Sequence record: MG673519.1
Origin: Escherichia phage LAMP
Length of the DNA: 64,000 nucleotides
Reading direction: 5' to 3' (one strand)
The translations under genes were made by a program, and so were the position numbers. Position 1 is the first letter of the stretch. Every line of letters begins with the position of its first letter. The notes beneath the pieces are model-generated. The model was not told the DNA's origin and did no database searches. It saw nothing but the letters and a program-made list of their open reading frames with translations. Shown one piece after another: positions 2,508 through 15,007 of this stretch.

Positions 2508-3569
2508 ATGGCTAATCCAACTTTATTTGTATCGTATGACCAGAATGGTAAAAAACTTTCTTTTGCTAACTGGATTTCTGTTCTGTCCCCTCAGGATACC
2601 CCGTTCGTATCTATGACCGGTAAAGAGTCTATCAACCAGACTATCTTTAGCTGGCAGACCGATGCATTGGCAAGCGTTGACGCTAATAACGCACACGTTG
2701 AAGGTTCTCGTGCGGTTGATGGTGAAATGCAACCTACCGTAATTAAATCCAACGTTACTCAGATTCTGCGTAAGGTTGTTAAAGTTTCTGATACCGCTAA
2801 CACCACCGCTAACTACGGTCGTGGTCGTGAACTGATGTATCAGCTGGAGAAGAAAGGTAAAGAGATCAAGCGTGACCTCGAGAAAATCCTTCTGTCCGGT
2901 CAAGCTCGTACCGATGTTCTGGCTGACCAATACCTGACTAACTCCGCAACTGATCCTGCAGCTGTTGGTCTGAACGACACCCACGCAGCTCGTAAGACTG
3001 GTGCTTTCCAGTTCCTGTGTGCACACAACGGTGTTTCTGCTGGTGTTGTTAAGAAAGAAAATGGCCCTGCTGATCCGGATACTGGTGCAGTAACTGTTAA
3101 AGTTGCACAGAATGCTTCTAACCCGACCACTAACGTTGGTTTTGATGAAGCTGATATCTTTGATATGACTCTGCAACTGTACACTGCTGGTTCTGAAGCA
3201 GATATCATCATGATCAACCCTGCTCATGCTAAGATCTTCGCTGGTCTGCAAGAAAACACTCAGGGTTCACGTAAGCGTATCTTTGAGAACACCAAGCAGT
3301 TCATCTACGAAGTTAACAGCATCACTGACCCGCTGGGCCAGAACTACAAAATCATCGTTAACCGTTGGATGCCTACCGATGCAGTTTACTTCTTCCGTAG
3401 CGCTGACTGGACTCAGATGGTCCTGCGTGCTCCGAAACGTACTGAACTGGCAAAAGATGGTTCTTATGAGAAGTGGATGATTGAAATGGAAGTTGGTCTG
3501 CGTCACCGCAACCCTTATGCTTCCGGAGTTCTGTTCACTGCTGCGGGAAAGTTGGATCCGCAACAGTAG
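2508..3569 (+). CDS. major capsid protein
   Basis: 353-aa ORF with strong RBS (aggag) after scaffold gene, followed by a strong terminator; position and composition typical of an HK97-fold capsid. Confidence 0.8.
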   Translation: MANPTLFVSYDQNGKKLSFANWISVLSPQDTPFVSMTGKESINQTIFSWQTDALASVDANNAHVEGSRAVDGEMQPTVIKSNVTQILRKVVKVSDTANTTANYGRGRELMYQLEKKGKEIKRDLEKILLSGQARTDVLADQYLTNSATDPAAVGLNDTHAARKTGAFQFLCAHNGVSAGVVKKENGPADPDTGAVTVKVAQNASNPTTNVGFDEADIFDMTLQLYTAGSEADIIMINPAHAKIFAGLQENTQGSRKRIFENTKQFIYEVNSITDPLGQNYKIIVNRWMPTDAVYFFRSADWTQMVLRAPKRTELAKDGSYEKWMIEMEVGLRHRNPYASGVLFTAAGKLDPQQ

Positions 3570-4087
3570 ACAGTGTGACTGTTAGCCCTGCGTCTGTAGA
3601 AAGTCTAGAGACAGGGGCTACTCAGCAGTTTACTGCAAGCGCTGAGAAGAGTGACGGTTCTACCGAAACAACTGGCTTTACTTGGTCAGTAACAGGAGGC
3701 GGTTCTATCACTCAGTCTGGTTTGTATACTGCTCCGAGTGCGGCTCAATCCACTGATGTATCCATTACTGCGACTTTAGAGGGTGTTTCTGGTACAGCAA
3801 CCATTTCTGAAATTGTTGATCCTACCCCTACTATTGTAGCTAAGGGTCCAATTACAGGTAAAACTGGTGGTTCTTCCACTAACTTCACTACCATGTTTAC
3901 TGTAACTAATTCTACTGCTGCGGATTACACGTTTGTTGTAACCCCTGCAGAAGCTGGTACAGTAAGCGCTGCTGGTGCGTTAACCTTAGATGATGCTGCA
4001 AGTGGCGAAGTTACTGTTCAAGCAAGTTTGACAGCTGACCCGTCCATCAATGCAACATGCACTTTTACTGGTGTAACACCTGCTTAA
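2508..4087 (+). CDS. C-terminally extended capsid protein made by programmed -1 frameshift, carrying an Ig-like (BIG2-type) domain
   Basis: -1 frame is open from 3485 to 4087 with no RBS or ATG; slippery heptamer G_GGA_AAG at 3545-3551 in the capsid frame; extension begins TVSPASVESLETGATQQFTASAEKSDGS. Confidence 0.6.
3545..3551 (+). other. candidate -1 ribosomal frameshift slippery site (G GGA AAG)
   Basis: X_XXY_YYZ heptamer 19 nt upstream of the capsid stop codon, with the -1 frame open on both sides. Confidence 0.55.
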
Positions 4088-4094
4088 AACTAGA

Positions 4095-4118
4095 CCCTGC
4101 CTTCGGGCGGGGTTTTTT
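4095..4118 (+). terminator. rho-independent terminator after capsid gene
   Basis: Hairpin ccctgcc-ttcg-ggcgggg followed by TTTTTT. Confidence 0.75.
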
Positions 4119-4188: not shown

Positions 4189-4941
4189 ATGGCAATGCCA
4201 GATGTTCAATACCCCATCAATACCTATGGGTGGCTAAAGAAGGCCGTGGCCCTCTGGGCAGATAGGGACGATGACGAATTTGTTAATCAAATTCCAAACT
4301 TTATTAACTTTGCAGAGAAAGAGATTTATCGTAACTTACGCATCCCTCCTCTGGAAAAAGAAGTGTATTTAGATATTAAAGATGGAGTAGCTTACATTCC
4401 TCCTGATTACTTAGAAGCTCAATGGATGATGAGAGCCAAAGATGGTACAATCTTCCAAGTAACATCTCCTGAAGAGATTAGCTATCGTAGACAGCATGGA
4501 ACAATTAATCCATCTCATTGGAATAACCAACCTGTTAACTTTGCTCGTTTCGGCAGTCGTTTCATTTTCTACCCTAGCATCGAAGCAGACACTCCGTACT
4601 ATCCTGATGATGGAAGTCCTTTGATTCCAGCAGAAAACTCAGTGATTCTTAGTTATTATGCAGACCCACCGGAGTTTCATGAAGATACAGACACTAGTGC
4701 TATTCTTACTATCGCACCAGAGCTTCTTCTGTATTTCACCCTACGTCATGCTTGTCTGTTTGTTCAAGATGATAACGGTGTTCAGAAATGGTCAGCATTA
4801 GGAAAAGCTATCCTTGATGAAATGGTAGAACAGAATAAGAAACAAGAGTACTCAGGTTCACCTATCGCAATTCCGAATAACATGACTCGACTTCAGAGCA
4901 GCTTGCCTGATATTTATGGTATTCGTACTTCTCGTGTATAA
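4189..4941 (+). CDS. virion structural protein (putative adaptor or tail protein)
   Basis: 250-aa ORF with strong RBS, between capsid and tail fiber genes. Confidence 0.4.
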   Translation: MAMPDVQYPINTYGWLKKAVALWADRDDDEFVNQIPNFINFAEKEIYRNLRIPPLEKEVYLDIKDGVAYIPPDYLEAQWMMRAKDGTIFQVTSPEEISYRRQHGTINPSHWNNQPVNFARFGSRFIFYPSIEADTPYYPDDGSPLIPAENSVILSYYADPPEFHEDTDTSAILTIAPELLLYFTLRHACLFVQDDNGVQKWSALGKAILDEMVEQNKKQEYSGSPIAIPNNMTRLQSSLPDIYGIRTSRV

Positions 4942-4950
4942 GGAGATAAT

Positions 4951-7900
4951 ATGATCGTTTATAATAACCAAGCACCTGATGCAGTGAATAACGTTGGGCA
5001 GTTTGGTGCTACTGAAGGCTCTATTGGAGCTTATAAGCAAGCAGCAGAGTATGCAGCTGACTCTAAATATTGGGCACTGTTAGCAGAATCTAAGTTTGGT
5101 ACAATTGATGACTTGATCGCTGAAGTAGAGCGTTTGTATCAGCAAGGTGTTCTGATGAAGCAGGATATCGAAGATCTTAAGCAGGACTTTAGAGATCAAG
5201 ATGCTCGTCTGATGAGTTTGATTGCTCAAACTAACGCAGCAGTCTCTGATGCTAACAATGCTGTTGCTTTAATCAATCAGAAACTTATTGAGGTTCAGAA
5301 TCAGCTTGACGTTCTGTTAGGAATGTCCGTTGATGTAACCACACTCCCTCCGGGAACTCCGGCTACTGGCTCTTTTAATCCTAACACTGGTGCAATATCT
5401 CTGGGTATCCCAGAAGGTGATCCCGGAAAGGATGGTTCTGTTAAGGATTTGGATACAGCACCAACTGGTGTTCCTGTTCTTGGTGATGTAGGCTTCTATG
5501 TTGATAAAGATGATAACACCGTTCACAAAACATCTTTAGAGAATATTGCAAACCTTATCCCATCCGTTCGTTCTATCTCTGTAAACGGCGGTCCTTCTGA
5601 GAGTGGTGAAGTTGCTCTAACTCTTGACAAAAGCACTGTTGGGCTAAGTAATGTAGAGAACGTGGCTTCTTATAGTAAAGAAGTTGTTGATAACAAAGTT
5701 GATGGTTTTATTAAAACATACAGCTCTAAAGCTGAAGCGGATGCGGATGCCGTTAATCGTGAGGCTGGAGAAACTGTTCTTGTTTGGGAAGACACTCAGT
5801 ATGTATTCTATAAAGTAGCTGCTGATAAGATTTTAGATTTGGATAAAACTGAACCTCGTGTCATCACTGTTAACTCCCGCATTCCAGATTCCAGCGGTAA
5901 CATCGACATTACCATCCCTACAGGAAACCCCTCTCTGTATCTTGGTGAATTGCTCATGTTCCCATATGACCCATCTCGTCCTATCTCTTATCCGGGGATT
6001 TTACCTGCTGACGGTCGTTTGGTCTCTAAAGACTTAGCTAGTGATTTGGGTGCTTCTTTGGTAAGCGGTCAACTTCCTGTTGTATCAGAGACAGAGTGGC
6101 AGGCAGGTGCTAAGCAATATTATTCTTGGGGTAAATTAGCTGATGGCTTGACCGATGCAGATTCTACCAACTATATTAACATACGTCTTCCTGATTGGAC
6201 TGGTGGTGAAGCTATTAGATCTCCTAGCTTAACTGGAGATACTTCTTATGACGGTAAACCAATAGATCAGAAACCTTATATTGTTACTATTAACGGAATC
6301 TCCCCTAATGATATCACAGGAAACGTCAACATAACAGCTGCAAACATAGGAGCTTTGGCTAAGTCTGGTGGTATCATGGATGGAAACTTGGTCCTTAACA
6401 AAGCCGTAGCTTTACGCAGAATAAAGGACAATGACACTCAAGTTAACATGGTATCAAGGAGTGATTCTGATGATTCTGTGCTTGGTGACCATTTAGCTAA
6501 AACTGTTATTGCCTCCTCAGAGACTCCTATCTTCTCTAAACCGGATGGGGATTATAAATTTTATACAGAGGATAATAAACCTACGAACGTTGATGTTGGT
6601 GCTGCTGGTATTGATGTTAATGGGGTTAACTCCGACATTAAAACTTTTACACAGAAAGTAACATTCCAGCAACCGGTTACAGTAGCAGATGCAGTTGGGG
6701 ATTATGATGCAGTTACCTTACGTCAGCTGAGAAACCAAGGCGGTGGCGGTGGTGGTCCTACGATGAACGGTATCTCCAACTTTAACATTGGTGATTTCCG
6801 TCTTGTTGATAGCCGTGCCTTTATTCAAGCAAATGATGTAGTGTCTGACGGTCAGTTACTGAATCGGGCAGATTGGCCTGAACTTTGGGCTTATGCTCAG
6901 ATGTTGTCTCCGATAACTGATTCCGAGTGGCTGGCGACACCTTCCAAACGTGGTCGGTATTCACTAGGTGATGGGGCTACGACTTTCCGTGTGCCAGACA
7001 GGAACGGCGTTCAGGCAGGCTCTATTAACGAATTATTTGGACGCGGTGATGGTGGGGTATCCTCTGCTGCGGGTGATGTATTCGAAAACGGCGCGCCGAA
7101 TATCACAGGGTCGTTCAGAGGATATACATACGTCAACAACAATCCAAATGGCGCATTTACGTTTGCAGCCACCAGCACAAACGTTGTTAACACGACAAGT
7201 GGAACAGACACAAACACACAATATGGAGTATTCAATTTCGGCGCTGACAAATCAAATGCCGCTTACGGACGCTCGTCAAAGGTGCGGCCAGATTGCTTTG
7301 TCGGTGTTTGGGTGATTCGTGCATCTGGCGGCTTCGTGGCGGCGAATACGCAATGGTCTGTTATTAATAGCGATGACATAAGACCGTCGGACGGTACAAC
7401 CGTTACAGGTGGCAACTTGATATCCGATTATAGGGTTGGCACAGAGTCAGAAGGCTCAGCTGAATTCAAAATGCAAGGCACTGTTGGTGGTTCATACTCT
7501 GCAAGAATTGGAGTTTATAACAAAACTTCTTCAAACGGTACAACTTTTGATTTCACTGAAGCTGGGAATATAGAGACTCCTAGGGGTCGTGTTTTGGTGA
7601 AGGGTGATTATGGTGTTGGTGTTCAGGGTGGTACAGTGCTACCTGCTTCTAACTATAACCAGTTCATAACAGACTCAGATGGTAATTCGCCGTGGGCAGC
7701 TGCAAATGGGGGAGGTTTCCAAACTTCTTATGCCGTAAACAGAATCTGCCAGTTTTGGATAAGCTTGAATGGTTCGGCTTATGTTAGAACTAACACCATA
7801 AACAACAATCCAAAAGAACTCAAAACCAACCTTCCGTGGACAACTCTTCAGAATGCTGGAACCTCTGACGCGAATGTTAAAGATATTGGTGATGATTTGG

Positions 7901-8157
7901 ATTTAAATGTCGCTCTAAGTAATATTAAAGCTCTTGAGTTTAAGAATTTTACATACAAGAGTGATAAGAATAAATCTCCACGTCGAGGAGTTATTGCACA
8001 ACAGGCAGAACAGGTTGACCCTCAGTATGTTCACAGTGCAGAAAAAAGTGGAGTTATGACTCTCGACACTAACCCACTTTTATTAGATGCTCTTGCTGCT
8101 ATCAAGCTTTTGTCTGCAAAAGTGGAGGAGTTAGAAAAACAACTGGCTGCTAAGTAA
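4951..8157 (+). CDS. tail fiber protein 1 with tail-collar-like module and C-terminal intramolecular chaperone (peptidase S74-like) domain
   Basis: 1068 aa; TTFRVPDRNGVQAGS collar-like motif; poly-Gly linker; C-terminal segment typical of the self-cleaving fiber chaperone. Confidence 0.75.
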   Translation: MIVYNNQAPDAVNNVGQFGATEGSIGAYKQAAEYAADSKYWALLAESKFGTIDDLIAEVERLYQQGVLMKQDIEDLKQDFRDQDARLMSLIAQTNAAVSDANNAVALINQKLIEVQNQLDVLLGMSVDVTTLPPGTPATGSFNPNTGAISLGIPEGDPGKDGSVKDLDTAPTGVPVLGDVGFYVDKDDNTVHKTSLENIANLIPSVRSISVNGGPSESGEVALTLDKSTVGLSNVENVASYSKEVVDNKVDGFIKTYSSKAEADADAVNREAGETVLVWEDTQYVFYKVAADKILDLDKTEPRVITVNSRIPDSSGNIDITIPTGNPSLYLGELLMFPYDPSRPISYPGILPADGRLVSKDLASDLGASLVSGQLPVVSETEWQAGAKQYYSWGKLADGLTDADSTNYINIRLPDWTGGEAIRSPSLTGDTSYDGKPIDQKPYIVTINGISPNDITGNVNITAANIGALAKSGGIMDGNLVLNKAVALRRIKDNDTQVNMVSRSDSDDSVLGDHLAKTVIASSETPIFSKPDGDYKFYTEDNKPTNVDVGAAGIDVNGVNSDIKTFTQKVTFQQPVTVADAVGDYDAVTLRQLRNQGGGGGGPTMNGISNFNIGDFRLVDSRAFIQANDVVSDGQLLNRADWPELWAYAQMLSPITDSEWLATPSKRGRYSLGDGATTFRVPDRNGVQAGSINELFGRGDGGVSSAAGDVFENGAPNITGSFRGYTYVNNNPNGAFTFAATSTNVVNTTSGTDTNTQYGVFNFGADKSNAAYGRSSKVRPDCFVGVWVIRASGGFVAANTQWSVINSDDIRPSDGTTVTGGNLISDYRVGTESEGSAEFKMQGTVGGSYSARIGVYNKTSSNGTTFDFTEAGNIETPRGRVLVKGDYGVGVQGGTVLPASNYNQFITDSDGNSPWAAANGGGFQTSYAVNRICQFWISLNGSAYVRTNTINNNPKELKTNLPWTTLQNAGTSDANVKDIGDDLDLNVALSNIKALEFKNFTYKSDKNKSPRRGVIAQQAEQVDPQYVHSAEKSGVMTLDTNPLLLDALAAIKLLSAKVEELEKQLAAK

Positions 8158-8165
8158 TTAACAAC

Positions 8166-8184
8166 GCTCCCTTCGGGGAGCTTT
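8166..8184 (+). terminator. weak terminator or attenuator hairpin between fiber genes
   Basis: gctccc-ttcg-gggagc hairpin followed by only TTT. Confidence 0.35.
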
Positions 8185-8196
8185 AAGGAGAATTTA

Positions 8197-10332
8197 ATGT
8201 CTAGAGAATTAATGCCTAAATCCGGTATAATGATGCCACATGTAGTGGTTAACCGAGATGCTGCGGTAGTAGGTGTCTCCACTGTAGACGGAGTGGCTGG
8301 TGCAATTGATCTTACTGGTAAGTATCTACAGAAAACAGATGCGTCAGCTACCTATCAAACAAAAACTGAAGGTGCTTCTAAGACTTATGTTTTAGATTCT
8401 ATTCAACCTATCATGGAAGGTGCTTTATTTAAAGCTGACCCTTTCGTAGATAACAACGTCCCTTTCCGTTCCGCTGGGGCTAATGGTGTAGAGTCTGTGG
8501 ATATGATGAAAGTCACCACTGATAACTCAATCAAGATTGGTAGTTATGCTTCCTCAGTTCAAGGAGTAGAGATTCATTCTGCTGGTCGTGTTCAGGTTGT
8601 TGACCAGAATGACGGTGGTGTAGAAACTAAATATCCTATCTATTCTAAGCGTTTCCGTCCTGAGATTGAAGATTTACCTTTTGCTGCAATCGGTTCTTAT
8701 GTTAAGGATTCTCAAGGTCGTACCATTGGAGTAAATCGAACTGGTATCAACTCTGATATCAAACAGTTTACTCAGAAAGTAACTTTCTCTGAACCAGTTA
8801 CTGTTCCTGATGCTGTTGGTGATTATGATGCTGTTACACTAAGACAGCTTCGTAACAGTGGTGGAGGTTCTGGTGGTCCTACCATGAGCGGTATCTCCAA
8901 CTTTGGTATTGGTGATTTCCATCTTCGTGATAGTCGTGCTTTTATCCCAGCTTTTGAAGTAACCTCTGATGGACAGCTTCTCAGTCGTTCAGAGTATCCA
9001 GACCTTTGGGCTTATGCTCAACTGTTGACACCTATCTCGGATGCTGATTGGTTGGCTGATCCTCAGAAACGTGGTAAATACTCAACAGGTGATGGTTCTA
9101 CTACTTTCCGTGTCCCTGACCGAAATGGTGTCCAATCAGGTTCAATTAAAGAGTTGTTTGGGAGAGGGGACGGAGGATCTTCCTCTACCGCAGGTACCAT
9201 ATATGAAGCAGCAGCGCCAGACATTGGAGGGGCAGCAGCTGGCGTATCTCAAGGTACTTATGCGCAAATTTTTGGTACAGCAGTAAGAGGTGCGTTTTTC
9301 ACAGATAACGGACTGTATCCTCAAGGAGCTGGTGAAACAATACCGGGTGGTACTGGTGCAACTGAAGGTCGTCAGAATACTCTGAATTTCCTAGCAAGTA
9401 GATCTAATGCTACTTATGGGAGATACGGTGTTTCAGATAACATCCTCCCTCGTAACTTCATCGGTGTTTGGACCATCCGTGCTCATGGTGGGTTCGTAGC
9501 TGCTAATACTTCTTGGTCTGTTATTAACGGCGACACGTCAATGCCACCTTCCGGAGTTTCAGTAGACGGTGGTTACATACGTAGTGTGTACAATGTGGCC
9601 GGTTCTCCGGTAGCAGAGTTCGCTGTCCGAGCGGTTGCAAACTCTAACGGTTATTATGCCAGAGCGTACACGAGAAACCATACTGACAACACGTCGGGGT
9701 ACTTTGATTTCCATGAGAATGGAGAGTTCGCTGCGGCTGAGTTCCGTGGTCAAAGAATTACCTTGAATGATAATAACTGGCCGGGAGTGGTGATGAAGCC
9801 TTTTTCGGCTAACCCATCTGCTCTCGGTGGTGTCACTCTTATCGAATCCAACATTGGAGCCGCTGCTAGTGATGTCTCCCGTGTGAGTCTGATTAGACGG
9901 AGGGTTGACGGTGTTACAGGTTCGATTACCGTTGGTTTTCCGCAGACAGCAGGTACTCTGGCTCTCCAAGGTACTTCTGGCATCAATTTTAAGAAGGATA
10001 TTGTTGATGCTGATGCTAATGAAGCACTCGATAGAATCACCAACCAGCGTTTGGTCAACTTTGTCTATAAAGATGATGAGCAAGAACGTGTTCGATTCGG
10101 TGTTATTGCTGAAGAAGCAGAGTTAATTGCACCGCAATACATCAAACACAATCAGGAATCTTACGAGGACATTCTTGACGAAGAAGGGAATAAGATTGGC
10201 GAGAAGACAAGGGACAGACCTTCCGTCGACGTCAACCCAATCGTCATGGATTTGATGGGGTGTGTTCAGGCGCTGACTAAAAGGATTGAGGCGATGGAAG
10301 CCGAGATTGCTGAACTCAAATCTAACAAGTGA
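8197..10332 (+). CDS. tail fiber protein 2 (paralog of fiber 1) with tail-collar-like module and C-terminal chaperone domain
   Basis: 711 aa; shares a long central module and the C-terminal chaperone-like domain with the 4951-8157 product. Confidence 0.75.
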   Translation: MSRELMPKSGIMMPHVVVNRDAAVVGVSTVDGVAGAIDLTGKYLQKTDASATYQTKTEGASKTYVLDSIQPIMEGALFKADPFVDNNVPFRSAGANGVESVDMMKVTTDNSIKIGSYASSVQGVEIHSAGRVQVVDQNDGGVETKYPIYSKRFRPEIEDLPFAAIGSYVKDSQGRTIGVNRTGINSDIKQFTQKVTFSEPVTVPDAVGDYDAVTLRQLRNSGGGSGGPTMSGISNFGIGDFHLRDSRAFIPAFEVTSDGQLLSRSEYPDLWAYAQLLTPISDADWLADPQKRGKYSTGDGSTTFRVPDRNGVQSGSIKELFGRGDGGSSSTAGTIYEAAAPDIGGAAAGVSQGTYAQIFGTAVRGAFFTDNGLYPQGAGETIPGGTGATEGRQNTLNFLASRSNATYGRYGVSDNILPRNFIGVWTIRAHGGFVAANTSWSVINGDTSMPPSGVSVDGGYIRSVYNVAGSPVAEFAVRAVANSNGYYARAYTRNHTDNTSGYFDFHENGEFAAAEFRGQRITLNDNNWPGVVMKPFSANPSALGGVTLIESNIGAAASDVSRVSLIRRRVDGVTGSITVGFPQTAGTLALQGTSGINFKKDIVDADANEALDRITNQRLVNFVYKDDEQERVRFGVIAEEAELIAPQYIKHNQESYEDILDEEGNKIGEKTRDRPSVDVNPIVMDLMGCVQALTKRIEAMEAEIAELKSNK

Positions 10333-10336
10333 GATA

Positions 10337-10354
10337 AGCCCCTTCGGGGGCTTT
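10337..10354 (+). terminator. weak terminator hairpin
   Basis: agcccc-ttcg-ggggct followed by TTT. Confidence 0.35.
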
Positions 10355-10424
10355 AGTAGTAAGTACCCTTAGTAAGTAATGAAACTAATATATCCCAAGA
10401 GGTTAATATATAGGAGACACTCAA

Positions 10425-10643
10425 ATGAAAATGATGAAACAAGCTGCATATGGTTTAATCTGTTTAGGTGCAGGTGTTGTGGTGTCAACCGCAGTTCCTG
10501 TAGGCGCAGTTCTTCCATTAGTAACTGTCCCTGCTCCAGTAGAGAAACTTAGTTCTCAATGTAAGCAGCGAACCATTCAAAATAATCTAGTTGTTATTTG
10601 TCCTGATGCTGAATCTAACGCTCTGAGAAAGATACTACCTTAA
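10425..10643 (+). CDS. small membrane protein (possible holin)
   Basis: 72 aa with hydrophobic N-terminal segment; immediately upstream of lysozyme gene. Confidence 0.35.
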   Translation: MKMMKQAAYGLICLGAGVVVSTAVPVGAVLPLVTVPAPVEKLSSQCKQRTIQNNLVVICPDAESNALRKILP

Positions 10644-10672
10644 TTTAAAGGGACCACAAAAGGAGGTTAGAA

Positions 10673-11164
10673 ATGGATAACGCCGCATTGCCACCTGTAC
10701 AACTAAACTTAAGCCCAGCTGGAATGGAATTCATCATGAAGCATGAGGGTATGAGAACCAAGGCTTATAAAGATTCCGCAGGTATCTGGACGATATGTGT
10801 AGGGGCTACGCGCGATATGAATGGTTATCCGGTTAGGCAAGGATTAACATATTCTATAGAGGATTGTCTAGCTCTGCTAGATAGAGACACACAAGACTCT
10901 GTTCGTGCTACTCAGAAGAACATAAAGGTTCCTTTACTAGTTCATGAGTTTGATGCACTCGCTTCTTTCAGCTTCAATGTTGGCAGTGGTGCTTTGAGCA
11001 CATCTAAGTTAAGGAAGGTTATCAATGGAGAGGTCAAAGGTGATGTATACTCAGAGTTTCTTCGTTGGGATAAAATTACGGTGAATGGAGAGAAGCATAG
11101 GAGTCAGGGTCTTCATAACAGAAGGGTTGCAGAAGCTGATCTTTATACCGAAGGTAAATATTAA
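10673..11164 (+). CDS. lysozyme, glycoside hydrolase family 24 (T4 lysozyme-like)
   Basis: N-terminal MKHEGMRTKAYKDSAGIWTICVGAT pattern typical of GH24 muramidases. Confidence 0.8.
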   Translation: MDNAALPPVQLNLSPAGMEFIMKHEGMRTKAYKDSAGIWTICVGATRDMNGYPVRQGLTYSIEDCLALLDRDTQDSVRATQKNIKVPLLVHEFDALASFSFNVGSGALSTSKLRKVINGEVKGDVYSEFLRWDKITVNGEKHRSQGLHNRRVAEADLYTEGKY

Positions 11165-11176
11165 TGGAGGTGCCTT

Positions 11177-11980
11177 TTGGCTATCGAAACTAATGCGGTA
11201 GTAGTTACCGACTTGAATCCACTCTATCCTAGAGACAGGGATTATATCTACGAAGGGGCGGCTCAAATCCGCCTCATTAAACAAACACTACAAAACACAT
11301 TCCCCAATGTTACAGAACCAGTTCAGTTGGACTCAGATTCTCTCAATATTCTGGCTAGCAAAGTTACCTTTACTGGTGACTCTATGGATGTTGGTGGGTT
11401 GATGATCAAGAATGCCACTCCGGGTACAGGTGATAGCGATGTTGTCACTAAAGGCCAGATGGAAGCTTTCATGCAGAACTGGATGGCTAATAAACTTTAC
11501 AGGATTGGCTCTTACTATATCACTGAAGAAGATATTAACCCCGGTGATAGTTCTTCTCTTGGTTTTGGCTCTTGGGCTAAAGTGACTGGTGTTATTATGG
11601 GTACTGGTGTAGTAAACCCTGATGGCTCTGTTCCTAATGCTCAGAGGGTTGAATTCCAAGCAGGTGGTACTGGTGGTCGTGTATTCAATACCATTCGAAC
11701 AGAGAACGTACCTTTGATGACAGTTAATGGCTCCAGCTTCTCCTTATCCAGTAACACCCACAGCCACAATATGGTATTTGGTCGTGGAGATGCTAGTGGT
11801 CATAACAGCTCACCAAACTGGTATAGTCCAGGTGGTGGTTACAGTCAGAGAACGGAGAATGACACTCACACTCATACAATCTCTGGTAGTGTAAGTCTTG
11901 GTCGTGATGATATCTCTCGTCAACCTATTAACACTTTGCCACCATTCAGAGCAGCTCACATTTGGAGACGTATTAGCTAA
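11177..11980 (+). CDS. tail protein (TTG start)
   Basis: 267-aa ORF with ggagg RBS; Gly/Ser/Thr-rich, in tail gene block. Confidence 0.4.
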   Translation: MAIETNAVVVTDLNPLYPRDRDYIYEGAAQIRLIKQTLQNTFPNVTEPVQLDSDSLNILASKVTFTGDSMDVGGLMIKNATPGTGDSDVVTKGQMEAFMQNWMANKLYRIGSYYITEEDINPGDSSSLGFGSWAKVTGVIMGTGVVNPDGSVPNAQRVEFQAGGTGGRVFNTIRTENVPLMTVNGSSFSLSSNTHSHNMVFGRGDASGHNSSPNWYSPGGGYSQRTENDTHTHTISGSVSLGRDDISRQPINTLPPFRAAHIWRRIS

Positions 11981-11989
11981 GGAGGAATT

Positions 11990-14900
11990 ATGGCGCTGTA
12001 TCCAATAAAGTCACTAGGTGCTGTAGGCGTTATCGCTGATCAGGCTCCGACAGACTTAGCTCCTAATGCTTTCACTAATGCTATAAATGCTCGATTTGTT
12101 GAGCAGAGAGTGTTTAAGACGGGGGGCAATGCCCCTCTTTCTTATGTAGATGAAGATAAGGATTTAACCCCTCTGTCTTTCGTGTCTATGCCTTTCGATT
12201 ATTATAGCGCAGGTAATAGCTTTCTTGTTGTAGGTACGAATAAGAAGTTATATAAACTGACAGATGAAAGCTTGACTGACATTAGCCGTAAGGTTGCTAC
12301 AGTCACTAAGAAGGCTTCTGCCTCAATTAAGATCTATCCAGTTGTTTCTCAAATCGTTCCTAAAGAATCAACTATTTCAATGAACTTCAATCAGACTAAG
12401 AATCTAGAAGTTTCTCTTCTTCCTGCTGATGCTAACAATACCGACCTTGTTTGGGAGGTTAGTAATTCAACCTATGGAAGTATTGCAGTAGACCCTAATG
12501 ATTCTAAACTTGCTACCCTAACATCTTTTGAGAGAGAGGGGAATCTTGTAGTAACCATCTCTACTGCTGATGATTCTGTAGTGGCTCAGATTGCTGTGAA
12601 CATTATAGATGGTGATTCGGGAATCTTCTTGAGTCAGGACACTGTTACTATCCGTAAAGGAGGAACTACCACTCTTACGGCTGTTACTGGTAAAACCCCT
12701 GTTACTTGGTCTAGCAGTAATGCTTCTATTGTATCCGTAACCCCTAACGCTAATTCTCTAACTGCTGTTATTACTGCTAATGGTGAGGGCAACGTAACAA
12801 TCACTGCCGATAATGGAACGAAGACTGCTTCTTGTGAGGTTGTTTCTATACCTCAGATTGATAGCATCTCTTTAAGCCAGTCGGATGTTATTGTAAGCAG
12901 AGGTTCTCAGTACATCTTAACTGCTACCCTTTCTCCTGCTGATGCCCCTAATCAAAACATTACTTGGACCTCTTCTAATCCAAATATTGCAACAGTATCA
13001 GGGACTAGTACACAAGGGACGATCAATGCCTTACTTGCTGGATTTACTGAGATTACGGCTACCACTGAAGAAGGTAACAGAGTTGCTGTCTGTACTGTAC
13101 GAGTAGATTTAGCTGGAAGGGCGATGAGAACAAGTGCTATGGCATTTGCTGCACCTGCATCAGAACCAATTGAATCACAAGAGGAAGAAGTAGTAACTTC
13201 TCCTGAAAGTGAAGAGACGGTTTATTTTGCTGATCCTGTGTCTGGTATCGATACGTCAGGGATGTATGAAGGTAATAACTTCTACGACTACTCTAACGTG
13301 AACGACATTGAAGGTTTTGCAAGAGCTTCTTTACTAGAAACCCCTTTGTCATCCGTAACCTTGGATGTTGTCAGTGCTTCTCTTGATGTTGGTGAGGAAA
13401 TAGTTATTACAGCTACAGCTTCTCCAGAAGGTGAGTATTCCTATCAGTGGTCTGTCGATAAGACTGGTTATGTTTCTACAACTTCAGTTACTGGTAAATC
13501 TATCAAACTGGTTGCTCTTCGTAAAGGGGAGGTTAACGTAACATGTACTGTTAGTCAGATGACTCAGAAAGATTACGATGCTTTTGATGACTACCCTTGG
13601 TATCACGCTGTTATCTCTAACTGTGCAGTTGCTACAACTCACTATGAAACTCCTCAGGTAAAAGAGTTCGAATCAGAATACTTTGTAGACCTTCCGGGGT
13701 GGGGTGAGCAAACAGTTGTTGACAGTGATGGAAACCCTTCAGTCAAAAAGTTTAACTGGAAATGTGAGAGAGTAAGATCTTTTAACAACCGTCTTTTTGC
13801 TCTGAATATGAGAGAGGCTAATGCTTCTGGTGTTACCACTAACTACCCTCTTCGTCTTCGTTGGTCTAATTTTGCCAACGAGAACAAAGCTCCTACTTTA
13901 TGGGATGACTTTGCCTATGATCGAGTTGTGTCTTCGGACTTGGCTTCTAACATCGTAGGACAGACTCAGGCTTTAGAAAATGGATATGCTGGTTACATCG
14001 ACTTAGCTGACTCTAACGGCAGCTTGATTGATATCCTACCTCTTAAAGATTACTTGTTCGTTTATACAGAGTTTGAAACGTATATTGGTTCTCCAACTAA
14101 TAACACGTACCAACCTCTGATGTTCAAGAAACTCTTTAACGATTCCGGTATCCTTGCTCCTGAGTGTGCGGTTGAAGTAGAAGGTAGTCACTTCGTAGTT
14201 ACTCAGAACGATGTAATCTTACACAATGGTGCAACCAAGAAGTCAATCGCTTCTAACCGTGTTAAGAATATGCTAATTAATGAGATATGTCTGGTTAACC
14301 CTTTAGCTACTCGAGTACATTTGCATCAGGATAAGAAAGAAGTTTGGATTCTGTACGTAGGTCCGGGAGAACCAAAAGAAAGCTTCGCTTGTACTAAAGC
14401 TGCTGTATGGAACTACGAGTTTGATACTTGGTCTTTCCGTACTATCCCATATGCTCAATGTATTGGTCTGGTTGATCCTCCTGTTCTTGAAAGAGGTCCG
14501 ATCTGGGCTGACTTCCAAGAGATCACTTGGGATGACCCTTCAATCAAAGAGCTTGTTTGGAGAAAAGATGCAACTAACTTCCGTCAGAGGGTTACGATAG
14601 TAGGTTCATTCTTACGAGGTTTCTATCAAGTGGATGTTGGTGCTTTGGATTACTTCTATGATAGGCTTAATGATAAGGTTATAGAAAAACCACTGGAGAT
14701 GAGGTTAGAAAGAACTGGTATTGATTTTGATAACGTCACTAACGAATGGAATCAGAAACATATCAACAGGTTCAGACCTCAGACGACAGGTTCTGGTACG
14801 TATACTTTTGAAGCAGGTGGTAGTCAATTCTCTAATGAGTATGGTCATCCACACACATCTAAGACGTATACGATTGGTGTTGATAGGCATGTCTCGGTGA

Positions 14901-15007
14901 GACTGAACCATCCATACCTTTTCTATAATGTTATAGATAATGATGTTAACAGTAATGCTGCTATCAATGGATTAACGATAGAGTTTGCTGTTGGCGGGCG
15001 GAGATAA
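11990..15007 (+). CDS. large tail protein with tandem Ig-like (BIG2-type) domains
   Basis: 1005 aa; repeated segments of the form SVTP..A.....VTA..EG; strong RBS. Confidence 0.5.
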   Translation: MALYPIKSLGAVGVIADQAPTDLAPNAFTNAINARFVEQRVFKTGGNAPLSYVDEDKDLTPLSFVSMPFDYYSAGNSFLVVGTNKKLYKLTDESLTDISRKVATVTKKASASIKIYPVVSQIVPKESTISMNFNQTKNLEVSLLPADANNTDLVWEVSNSTYGSIAVDPNDSKLATLTSFEREGNLVVTISTADDSVVAQIAVNIIDGDSGIFLSQDTVTIRKGGTTTLTAVTGKTPVTWSSSNASIVSVTPNANSLTAVITANGEGNVTITADNGTKTASCEVVSIPQIDSISLSQSDVIVSRGSQYILTATLSPADAPNQNITWTSSNPNIATVSGTSTQGTINALLAGFTEITATTEEGNRVAVCTVRVDLAGRAMRTSAMAFAAPASEPIESQEEEVVTSPESEETVYFADPVSGIDTSGMYEGNNFYDYSNVNDIEGFARASLLETPLSSVTLDVVSASLDVGEEIVITATASPEGEYSYQWSVDKTGYVSTTSVTGKSIKLVALRKGEVNVTCTVSQMTQKDYDAFDDYPWYHAVISNCAVATTHYETPQVKEFESEYFVDLPGWGEQTVVDSDGNPSVKKFNWKCERVRSFNNRLFALNMREANASGVTTNYPLRLRWSNFANENKAPTLWDDFAYDRVVSSDLASNIVGQTQALENGYAGYIDLADSNGSLIDILPLKDYLFVYTEFETYIGSPTNNTYQPLMFKKLFNDSGILAPECAVEVEGSHFVVTQNDVILHNGATKKSIASNRVKNMLINEICLVNPLATRVHLHQDKKEVWILYVGPGEPKESFACTKAAVWNYEFDTWSFRTIPYAQCIGLVDPPVLERGPIWADFQEITWDDPSIKELVWRKDATNFRQRVTIVGSFLRGFYQVDVGALDYFYDRLNDKVIEKPLEMRLERTGIDFDNVTNEWNQKHINRFRPQTTGSGTYTFEAGGSQFSNEYGHPHTSKTYTIGVDRHVSVRLNHPYLFYNVIDNDVNSNAAINGLTIEFAVGGRR

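Follow-up and report, generated by a model that had tools for sequence, protein, structure and literature searches.

The window analysed here, 64,000 nt of the genome of LAMP (MG673519.1), a Kuravirus (Gordonclarkvirinae) podophage of E. coli with a backbone 97.7% identical to that of Bas94, contains two tail fibre genes whose products, F1 and F2, share a central module and a C-terminal chaperone, raising the question of what the two proteins build together and how they came to be alike. A first-pass annotation of the DNA read them as two separate fibres that arose by duplication and then diversified in their receptor-binding regions. From homology and comparison with related phages, we consider it about 75% probable that F1 and F2 together form a single branched long fibre as its two subunits, carrying exchanged cassettes and with no duplication in the lineage. 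Neither ORF is truncated or interrupted, and they lie adjacent on the same strand with a spacer of ~38–39 nt (Table 1). F2 is of the SU10 gp13/EP335 gp13/LtfB type, and the LAMP entry deposited as 'putative fiber protein' is 100% identical to it. The tail adaptor gene is included in the table as context; its product is the attachment site of the long fibre on the virion and it lies outside the repeat.

Table 1. Features of the long tail fibre locus of LAMP (nucleotide positions in the window).
Feature	Position	Strand	Basis
Tail adaptor protein, SU10 gp11 homologue	4189..4941	+	Pfam PF24175 SU10_adaptor, E 3.2e-29
F1, long tail fibre subunit anchored to the virion, 1068 aa	4951..8157	+	ORF; phrog_10305 tail fibre, 1565 bits
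F1 aa 1-206, N-terminal adaptor-binding part with coiled coil	4951..5568	+	96.6% identity to SU10 gp12 1-206
F1 aa 207-474, putative F2 docking region/branch point	5569..6372	+	Homology, conservation
F1 aa 475-552, linker/shaft peculiar to LAMP-type F1	6373..6606	+	Matches only SDYTW1 (96%), EK010 (69%)
F1 aa 553-810, shared module copy 1, putative collar-type domain ('Gp12-like RBD1')	6607..7380	+	
F1 aa 811-972, distal tip 'T5-like RBD2', up to predicted cleavage serine S972	7381..7866	+	
F1 aa 973-1068, Peptidase_S74 intramolecular chaperone	7867..8154	+	Pfam PF13884, 40.4 bits
F2, second subunit of the long tail fibre, 711 aa	8197..10332	+	ORF; phrog_6921, 985 bits
F2 aa 1-45, conserved N-terminal peptide, putative F1 docking	8197..8331	+	75.6% identity to DT57C LtfB 1-45
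F2 aa 46-177, proximal shaft	8332..8727	+	
F2 aa 178-448, shared module copy 2	8728..9540	+	95% identity to Bas93 F2 module
F2 aa 449-594, distal tip 'T5-like RBD2', up to predicted cleavage serine S594	9541..9978	+	
F2 aa 595-711, intramolecular chaperone	9979..10329	+	

BLASTP aligned F1 553–1066 with F2 178–705 at 43% identity (E 7e-120), and the strongest block within this alignment, ~260 aa at 60–62% amino acid identity, comprises the two copies of the shared module. The corresponding DNA repeats, at 6621–6920/8742–9041 and 7296–7373/9456–9533 (each 74% identical), agree with the ~250-aa module that had been placed at 6622–7375 and 8743–9530 in the two fibre genes. The pairwise alignment extends past the Gly-rich linker, which accounts for only 6–7 residues, and an alignment of 11 modules from 6 phages contains 86 invariant columns. 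The invariant collar residues are kept in both LAMP copies, and the core of the F2 module was modelled by AF2 with a pLDDT of 86–96. With SSF88874 and PF07484 as the collar domain reference, PF07484 matched all 11 modules, below its 24-bit cut-off and at model positions 38–54 only (best E 3.1e-5); comparison of the module profile with T4 gp12 in hhalign gave a probability of 0.14, and a PDB profile search returned LtfA as the sole match. The central module is real and homologous between the fibres, and it is not a neutral scaffold: the domain has been published as a Gp12-like receptor-binding domain.

Both proteins also end in a chaperone-like domain, as the HMM check confirmed: Peptidase_S74 scored above the PF13884 gathering cut-off of 22 in F1 (residues 972–1027, 40.4 bits) and in F2 (residues 596–647, 35.7 bits). 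To call the two domains related is correct at the level of the family, but they are only 34% identical to one another, whereas that of F2 is 87% identical to the chaperone of DT57C LtfA, and they represent different subtypes. The cleavage-site motifs are GTS972-DANVK977 in F1 (GTS↓D, aa 970–973) and GTS594-GINFK599 in F2, with the Ser and the Lys five residues downstream each conserved in 90% or more of 130 homologues; we take this pair to be the Ser/Lys dyad equivalent to Ser911/Lys916 of endoNF. Autoproteolytic release of the chaperones is predicted to occur after S972 and S594. In EP335 gp13, cleavage after the Ser removes the chaperone (PMC8217332). The Peptidase_S74 domains of endosialidases and fibres (K1F endoNF 3GW6, GA-1 3GUD, T5 pb1 4UW8) are a good match in fold, sharing with the LAMP copies both the above-threshold Pfam assignment and the Ser/Lys spacing, and nothing notable differs.

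Upstream of the module, F1 and F2 are unrelated. The ~550 extra N-terminal residues attributed to F1 correspond to the 552 that precede its module, but F2 has 177 unrelated residues of its own in this position and the difference is therefore 375. F1 1–474 matches SU10 gp12 (7z47_D, E 1e-252; 82% identity over F1 1–474) and is the only stretch of F1 common to every F1 variant compared, while F1 207–1066 matches DT57C LtfA (8hqz_d, E 4e-157). In the SU10 structure, gp12 residues 1–90 are resolved bound to the adaptor, on which gp12 trimers have six sites to dock (PMC9509320); F1 has the homologous adaptor-binding N-terminus, and its gene follows the adaptor gene immediately. The similarity to SU10 gp12 ends at F1 aa 473, so that the break from SU10-type F1 coincides with the 5′ edge of the linker, and Pfam did not find in F1 the Phage_tail_C_2 domain (PF25670) that it found in SU10 gp12, Bas93 F1 and Bas94 F1. 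On these two grounds F1 is, as judged from its sequence, a C-terminal variant of the SU10 gp12 family. It is also a minority variant, one that corresponds to DT57C LtfA end to end: the C-terminus of F1 is a Phage_tail_C_2 domain in ~95% of deposited relatives, and the junction of LAMP-type F1 occurs in only five other deposited phages (SDYTW1-F1-2-2_3, PAS59, EK010, E20-1 and the more distant pEC-N1203-2Af.1).

The second part of the conserved stretch, F1 aa 207–474, is 70–97% identical within the Gordonclarkvirinae, and F1 213–461 aligns with LtfA 200–442 at 44% identity (E 9e-57). F1 hence contains a counterpart of LtfA 223–471 and phiEco32 gp14 239–508, the regions proposed to hold LtfB and gp15 (PMC4728585). 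A degenerate collar-like motif is also present at F1 aa ~340–425. F2, for its part, opens with the ~45 aa conserved at the N-terminus of LtfB and gp15 (34 of the 45 residues identical to DT57C LtfB 1–45, ~76%); its N-terminus is 89% identical to that of SU10 gp13 (65% for the module), and F2 1–177 is 85–91% conserved in all Gordonclarkvirinae compared, whichever F1 C-terminus they carry. Because the F2 N-terminus is conserved despite unrelated F1 C-termini, the F2 docking site should lie within F1 1–474, leaving the rest of F1 as a free arm. One N-terminus is thus the adaptor-binding part of SU10 type and the other a docking peptide of LtfB/gp15 type, which argues that the supposed two separate fibres are probably one, with each subunit carrying its own distal receptor-binding region and chaperone. 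The LAMP virion would then bear six long tail fibres, each built from both subunits. F1 trimers would be held on the tail adaptor by residues 1–~90, as in the 97%-identical SU10 gp12, and F2 trimers would dock by their N-terminal ~45 residues onto F1 207–474, as homology and the comparative argument suggest, to give a forked fibre. Each arm would consist of the collar-type 'Gp12-like' module with its hypervariable insert, then the divergent 'T5-like' tip and finally the S74 chaperone, which would drive trimer folding before cleaving itself off.

The closest known parallel is the LtfA/LtfB branched fibre of DT57C and DT571/2 (Golomidova et al. 2016, PMC4728585; Ayala et al. 2023, PMC10713586), also encoded by a two-gene locus with a ~38–39 nt spacer, with module, tip and S74 chaperone on each subunit and a direct repeat between the genes. 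DT57C LtfA 200–1070 is collinear with F1 213–1066 (38.7%, E 3e-178) and LtfB with F2 (42% over 1–511, 68% over the chaperone). The systems differ in their anchor, the first ~200 residues of F1 fitting a podovirus adaptor of SU10 type whereas the T5-like LtfA uses the LtfC collar; in the 19-aa tandem repeats of LtfA, which are absent from F1; and in the intragenomic module repeat, 62% identical at the amino acid level in LAMP and 68% in DT57C. The LAMP genes occupy the same genomic position as SU10 gp12+gp13, phiEco32 gp14+gp15 and EP335 gp12+gp13 (PMC9509320, PMC8217332), and the order adaptor, F1, F2, holin, endolysin, short fibre, nozzle is common to LAMP and its Kuravirus relatives. However, F1 of the SU10/phiEco32/EP335 type has 786–882 aa and ends in PF25670 without a chaperone, whereas LAMP F1 continues past aa 474 with module, tip and chaperone. 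The 'T-shaped' fibres of the BASEL completion paper (10.1101/2024.09.12.612763) likewise combine Gp12-like RBD1, T5-like RBD2 and IMC, but there one T-shaped protein sits on a 'proximal' protein, whereas the proximal protein of LAMP itself bears a second T-shaped cassette.

The distal regions diverge, as had been proposed, with 22–26% identity between the copies in the hypervariable insert of the module (F1 ~aa 725–775, F2 ~aa 350–425) and ~22% between the tips. The F1 tip is 95.5% identical (94–99% at the nucleotide level) to that of F1 from the Suseptimavirus EK010. For the F2 tip, none of the Gordonclarkvirinae compared gave a nucleotide match; the best deposited-phage protein match to a query of tip plus chaperone (aa 441–711) is DT57C LtfA (58.5%), and one protein from a metagenome shares 84% identity with the F2 tip. 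In DT57C, genetics showed that LtfA and LtfB each bind a different O-antigen and that LtfB attaches via LtfA (PMC4728585), and EP335 gp13 is a proven O-antigen binder (PMC8217332). Two receptor-binding tips with dual specificity are therefore plausible in LAMP. As insert and tip differ almost completely between the arms, each fibre probably presents two (possibly up to four) non-enzymatic glycan-binding surfaces, through which the phage would attach reversibly to different O-antigens, ahead of the stage at which the short tail fibres and nozzle act.

The published description of SU10, in which a 700 Å fibre has a single elbow and gp12 and gp13 are named 'proximal' and 'distal' (PMC9509320), reads instead as an end-to-end arrangement. 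Transferred to LAMP, F2 would continue from the distal end of F1, and the F1 module would be a structural joint and not a receptor-binding tip, in line with the finding that the EP335 GFP-gp12 fusion (SU10-type F1) showed no binding to cells. We regard such a linear fibre as unlikely: the self-cleaving chaperone of F1 and a tip 95% like that of EK010 F1 are what a normal free distal end would have, genetics has assigned a receptor specificity of its own to the homologous LtfA (PMC4728585), and an F2 N-terminus that is the same beside a Phage_tail_C_2 or a cassette-type F1 cannot dock on the F1 C-terminus. That one of the two cassettes is decaying or redundant, leaving effectively a single specificity, is less probable still. 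Cassettes can erode, as in Bas93, whose F2 has a truncated chaperone (10.1101/2024.09.12.612763) and, at 625 aa, gave no S74 match, but both LAMP ORFs are intact and have lost neither the Ser/Lys dyad nor the invariant collar residues, and the near-identity of the F1 tip to that of a phage of another genus indicates recent acquisition and selection.

A tandem duplication within the lineage, after which the receptor-binding parts diverged and the copies served as independent fibres, would account for two adjacent genes on the same strand that are collinear from the module to the C-terminus, and in an NJ tree the F1-type modules nest within the diversity of the F2 type. The nesting makes it likely that an F2-type cassette was copied onto an F1 gene anciently, somewhere in the history of the family; for LAMP's own lineage, however, duplication is improbable. 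The two modules, at 62% identity, are no more alike than either is to those of unrelated phages: 78 of the 128 homologues taken from other phages lie nearer to the F2 module than the F1 module does (rank 79 of 128), and the clade descending from the common ancestor of both LAMP copies takes in 75 of the 134 tips in the NJ tree. Identical residues are encoded by different codons in 85 of 163 cases, the chaperones diverge as described above although that of F2 has a close counterpart in LtfA, and the N-termini are unrelated and distinct in role. The locus is moreover a mosaic, in which the nearest relative differs by segment with sharp breakpoints at domain borders. The likeness of F1 and F2 would thus reflect membership of a widely exchanged cassette family, with no duplication in this lineage. 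Members of the family are also present in T5-like siphoviruses, Wifcevirus myoviruses and other phages.

The two-subunit branched design was already known in related phages, and the LAMP locus reveals no new mechanism. It does represent a natural plug-and-play receptor-binding design, with a conserved anchor and branch point and two exchangeable cassettes, in which the conserved module flanks, …DAVGDYDAVTLRQLRN… and …GVWxIRAxGGFVAANTxWSVIN, are natural splice points; this should be useful for host-range prediction and for engineering in Kuravirus, a genus whose phages are employed against pathogenic E. coli. As a minority of Gordonclarkvirinae bear a full second cassette on the 'proximal' fibre protein, this protein should not be assumed to lack a receptor-binding function. 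A bolder reading, which we offer tentatively and hold to be somewhat doubtful, is that the fibres are four-headed adhesins, each of the two arms bearing a Gp12-like lateral domain and a T5-like tip and no two heads being alike, and that the two-gene cassette (F1 from ~207 onward plus F2) is mobile between podoviruses and T5-like siphoviruses. As many as four surface glycans could in that case be recognised by one podovirus, a transfer would exchange no more than the N-terminal ~200 residues of F1 to suit the recipient tail, and among podoviruses the LAMP-type phages would come closest to the DT57C branched fibre and might represent its donor type.

Finally, the module had been put forward as a potential recombination hotspot, a role to which the DNA is poorly suited: the repeats are 74% identical, with a longest exact match of 17 nt, and are a weak substrate for which intragenomic homologous recombination should be inefficient. 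Fusions between ltfA and ltfB of the kind that such recombination would generate have been seen in DT530(1) and DT571/2-ABF (PMC4728585), where the repeats are more alike than those of LAMP.

BLASTP aligned residues 553-1066 of F1 with residues 178-705 of F2, the two probable long tail fiber subunits of phage LAMP (MG673519; source given in a review table as animal feces, Russia, PMC9965538), at 43% identity (E 7e-120). The strongest block, hereafter the shared module, spans F1 553-810 and F2 178-448 (60-62% amino acid identity), and the DNA carries direct repeats at 6621-6920/8742-9041 and 7296-7373/9456-9533, each 74% identical. The coordinates and motifs quoted for these fibers in the first-pass annotation are correct, as is its claim that both proteins end in a chaperone-like domain: F1 and F2 both score above the Pfam threshold for the Peptidase_S74 intramolecular chaperone. 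The observation is confirmed; the interpretation placed on it is supported in part only. The similarity extends beyond any Gly-rich linker, with 86 invariant columns across 11 modules of six phages, and a low-complexity origin was rejected because the Gly run in the module is only 6-7 residues long. Between the two genes of one genome, identity is 69-80% over the N-terminal ∼170 columns of the module, only 22-26% over an insert of ∼70 columns, and ∼22% between the F1 and F2 tips, a pattern that would suit a conserved scaffold displaying variable binding surfaces.

In papers on close homologs, the shared module is described as a receptor-binding domain (RBD1) similar to T4 Gp12; a T5-like tip (RBD2) and then the chaperone come after it, giving a ‘T-shaped’ fiber (10.1101/2024.09.12.612763; HHpred was used for EP335 gp13 in PMC8217332). 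Our own tests lend the Gp12-like label no more than moderate support. Pfam Collar matched all 11 modules, but each hit was below threshold and confined to the G-x-G-x-TTFRVPD-x-NG motif; an hhalign comparison between the module profile and T4 gp12 was negative, and a PDB sequence profile search with the module alignment returned DT57C LtfA only, with neither T4 gp12 nor T5 pb1 found. AlphaFold2 modeled F2 178-711 with a mean pLDDT of 76.6 (alignment of 130 homologs), for which Foldseek against the PDB supported the chaperone domain alone, and the F1 module (20-sequence alignment) with a pLDDT of 44, an unusable model. Cleavage is predicted between GTS972 and D in F1 and between GTS594 and G in F2, with a Lys five residues downstream in each; this Ser and Lys are each at least 90% conserved among the 130 homologs, and EP335 gp13 is cut after the equivalent Ser (PMC8217332).

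Residues 1-474 of F1 match SU10 gp12 (7z47_D, E 1e-252), a long-tail-fiber protein resolved in contact with the adaptor over residues 1-90 in the solved structure (PMC9509320), and from residue ∼207 to its end F1 is collinear with LtfA of DT57C, a T5-like siphovirus (E 3e-178). F2 is of the SU10 gp13/phiEco32 gp15/EP335 gp13 type (first 177 residues 85-91% identical); over residues 1-45 its identity to DT57C LtfB is 76%, and beyond them it is collinear with both LtfB and LtfA. Genetic work by Golomidova et al. established that LtfB is present on the virion only via LtfA and that the two recognize different O-antigens; the authors proposed that LtfA 223-471, homologous to phiEco32 gp14 239-508, holds the LtfB N-terminus to form a branched fiber (PMC4728585). 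Our comparison supplies an argument independent of that work. The F2 N-terminus is essentially the same across phages with unrelated F1 C-termini, which consist of PF25670 (Phage_tail_C_2) in SU10, Bas93 and Bas94, and of the module, tip and chaperone cassette in LAMP, SDYTW1 and EK010. Because the F2 N-terminus is kept whatever the F1 C-terminus, F2 would be expected to dock within F1 1-474, the sole stretch that every F1 variant shares, in which case F1 downstream of residue 474 would form a free second arm. Overall, we consider it probable (roughly 75%) that LAMP carries a branched, two-subunit long tail fiber with two different, non-enzymatic glycan-binding ends.

Upstream of the module, within the proposed branch region, F1 residues ∼340-425 (window ∼5968-6225) resemble a collar motif in degenerate form, YPGILPADGR…INIRLPDWTGGE. 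The motif can be aligned with LtfA 341-405, and in LtfA a search with the module profile picks up an upstream collar (346-462, E 2e-10); searched with the same profile, F1 itself gave no upstream second collar, so that the motif is tied to the collar solely via the LtfA alignment. It may be the node at which F2 docks.

The first-pass annotation had explained the two fibers by duplication followed by diversification. Because module-only homolog searches returned short or fragmentary proteins unsuitable for phylogeny, F2 178-711 was used as the query instead. Identity between the two LAMP modules (62%) is no higher than their identity to the modules of other phages (50-72%), which argues against duplication and divergence in the LAMP lineage: 78 of 128 homologs are closer to the F2 module than the F1 module is, and the best match of the F1 module (75%) is an F2-type fiber from another ∼77-kb contig. 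In a neighbor-joining tree of 134 modules, F1 falls with SDYTW1 F1, EK010 F1 and several F2-type proteins and F2 groups with Bas93 F2, the clade of their common ancestor taking in 75 of the 134 tips. The two chaperones share 34% identity, and that of F2 is 87% identical to the DT57C LtfA chaperone. Sliding nucleotide identity to Bas93/Bas94 is 98-100% as far as ∼5050 and regains that level at ∼10300, and the patchwork of nearest relatives between (see table) indicates that repeated horizontal exchange, with joins at domain borders, put the locus together; somewhere in the family, an F2-type cassette was likely copied onto an F1 gene long ago. The annotation's further idea, that the module is a potential recombination hotspot, has precedent in DT530(1) and DT571/2-ABF, where recombination between ltfA/ltfB repeats fused both genes (PMC4728585), but the LAMP repeats are only 74% identical, no identical run in them exceeds 17 nt, and of the 163 codons that specify identical residues 85 differ, so intragenomic homologous recombination between them should be rare. 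The conserved module flanks are more plausibly the joints at which sequence is exchanged with other phages.

Features of the long tail fiber locus and nearest relatives of its segments
Coordinates	Feature	Match or nearest relative	Identity, E value or note
4189-4941	adaptor	Pfam SU10_adaptor	
4951-8157	F1		ORF, 1068 aa; same strand as F2
8197-10332	F2		ORF, 711 aa; same strand as F1
11177-11980	short tail fiber	7z47_I	E 1e-171
11990-15007	nozzle	7z47_G	
4951-5350	segment	SU10	97-99% nt
5500-5800	segment	SDYTW1	95% nt
7450-8050	segment	EK010 (different genus)	94-99% nt
8950-9250	segment	Bas93	95-100% nt
9550-10300	segment	no kuravirus match	none
9961-10325	segment	DT57C ltfA	83% nt

The F2 module (window 8728-9540) is 95% identical to that of Bas93 F2 (8602-10479 of the Bas93 sequence), a protein with a truncated chaperone, and the resemblance breaks off sharply at WSVIN (window ∼9527). 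Bas93 depends on the O16 O-antigen; if RBD1 sets specificity, LAMP F2 might also bind an O16-type glycan, although this is pure speculation.

The contiguous junction of branch region, linker and module occurs in six of 88 matching records and in no others, representing five phages: SDYTW1-F1-2-2_3, PAS59, EK010, E20-1 and, more distantly, pEC-N1203-2Af.1. A related-locus search of IMG/VR returned three known kuraviruses only, adding nothing. The long F1 already has a PHROG family (phrog_10305), and the literature on PAS59, Kuravirus taxonomy and BASEL does not comment on a proximal protein bearing its own cassette. The F1-type architecture is already fully described for DT57C; the LAMP locus is a known design, and its fiber was built through modular horizontal exchange.

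On either side of the locus, the backbone shares 97.7% identity with the BASEL kuraviruses Bas94, Bas93 and Bas92, and the genes around F1 and F2 match SU10 virion proteins of solved structure. Exactly at the F2 stop codon, identity to Bas94 returns to 99-100%. Genes for a holin (72 aa) and an endolysin (163 aa), at 10425-11164, lie between the long-fiber genes and the short tail fiber and nozzle genes, as they do in SU10 and the BASEL kuraviruses. No terminator was located from the adaptor gene through F1 to F2, so these three genes are probably co-transcribed. The 39-nt F1-F2 spacer contains a Shine-Dalgarno sequence (AAGGAG) and, just 5′ of it, a short GC-rich hairpin (8166-8181, GCTCCC-TTCG-GGGAGC), possibly with a role in RNA stability or translational coupling; a terminator here was rejected, as the + strand shows only this short hairpin and no proper T-tract. 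A strong hairpin that resembles an intrinsic terminator (T-run and a stem of 10 bp) is present at window 4092-4115, between the adaptor gene and the Ig-like domain ORF (3575-4087) that it directly follows; in SU10, a terminator is annotated at the corresponding position. The Ig-like ORF, whose only start is GTG, begins 5 nt after the major capsid ORF (2508-3569). A canonical −1 slippery heptamer in the capsid frame (G GGA AAG, window 3545-3551), from which a −1 shift reads stop-free into the Ig-like ORF, fits the two capsid isoforms reported to arise by ribosomal slippage in kuraviruses (PMC9965538). Across the whole window, the sign of the GC skew switches near 26 kb, consistent with two genome arms transcribed divergently or convergently, as in other kuraviruses.
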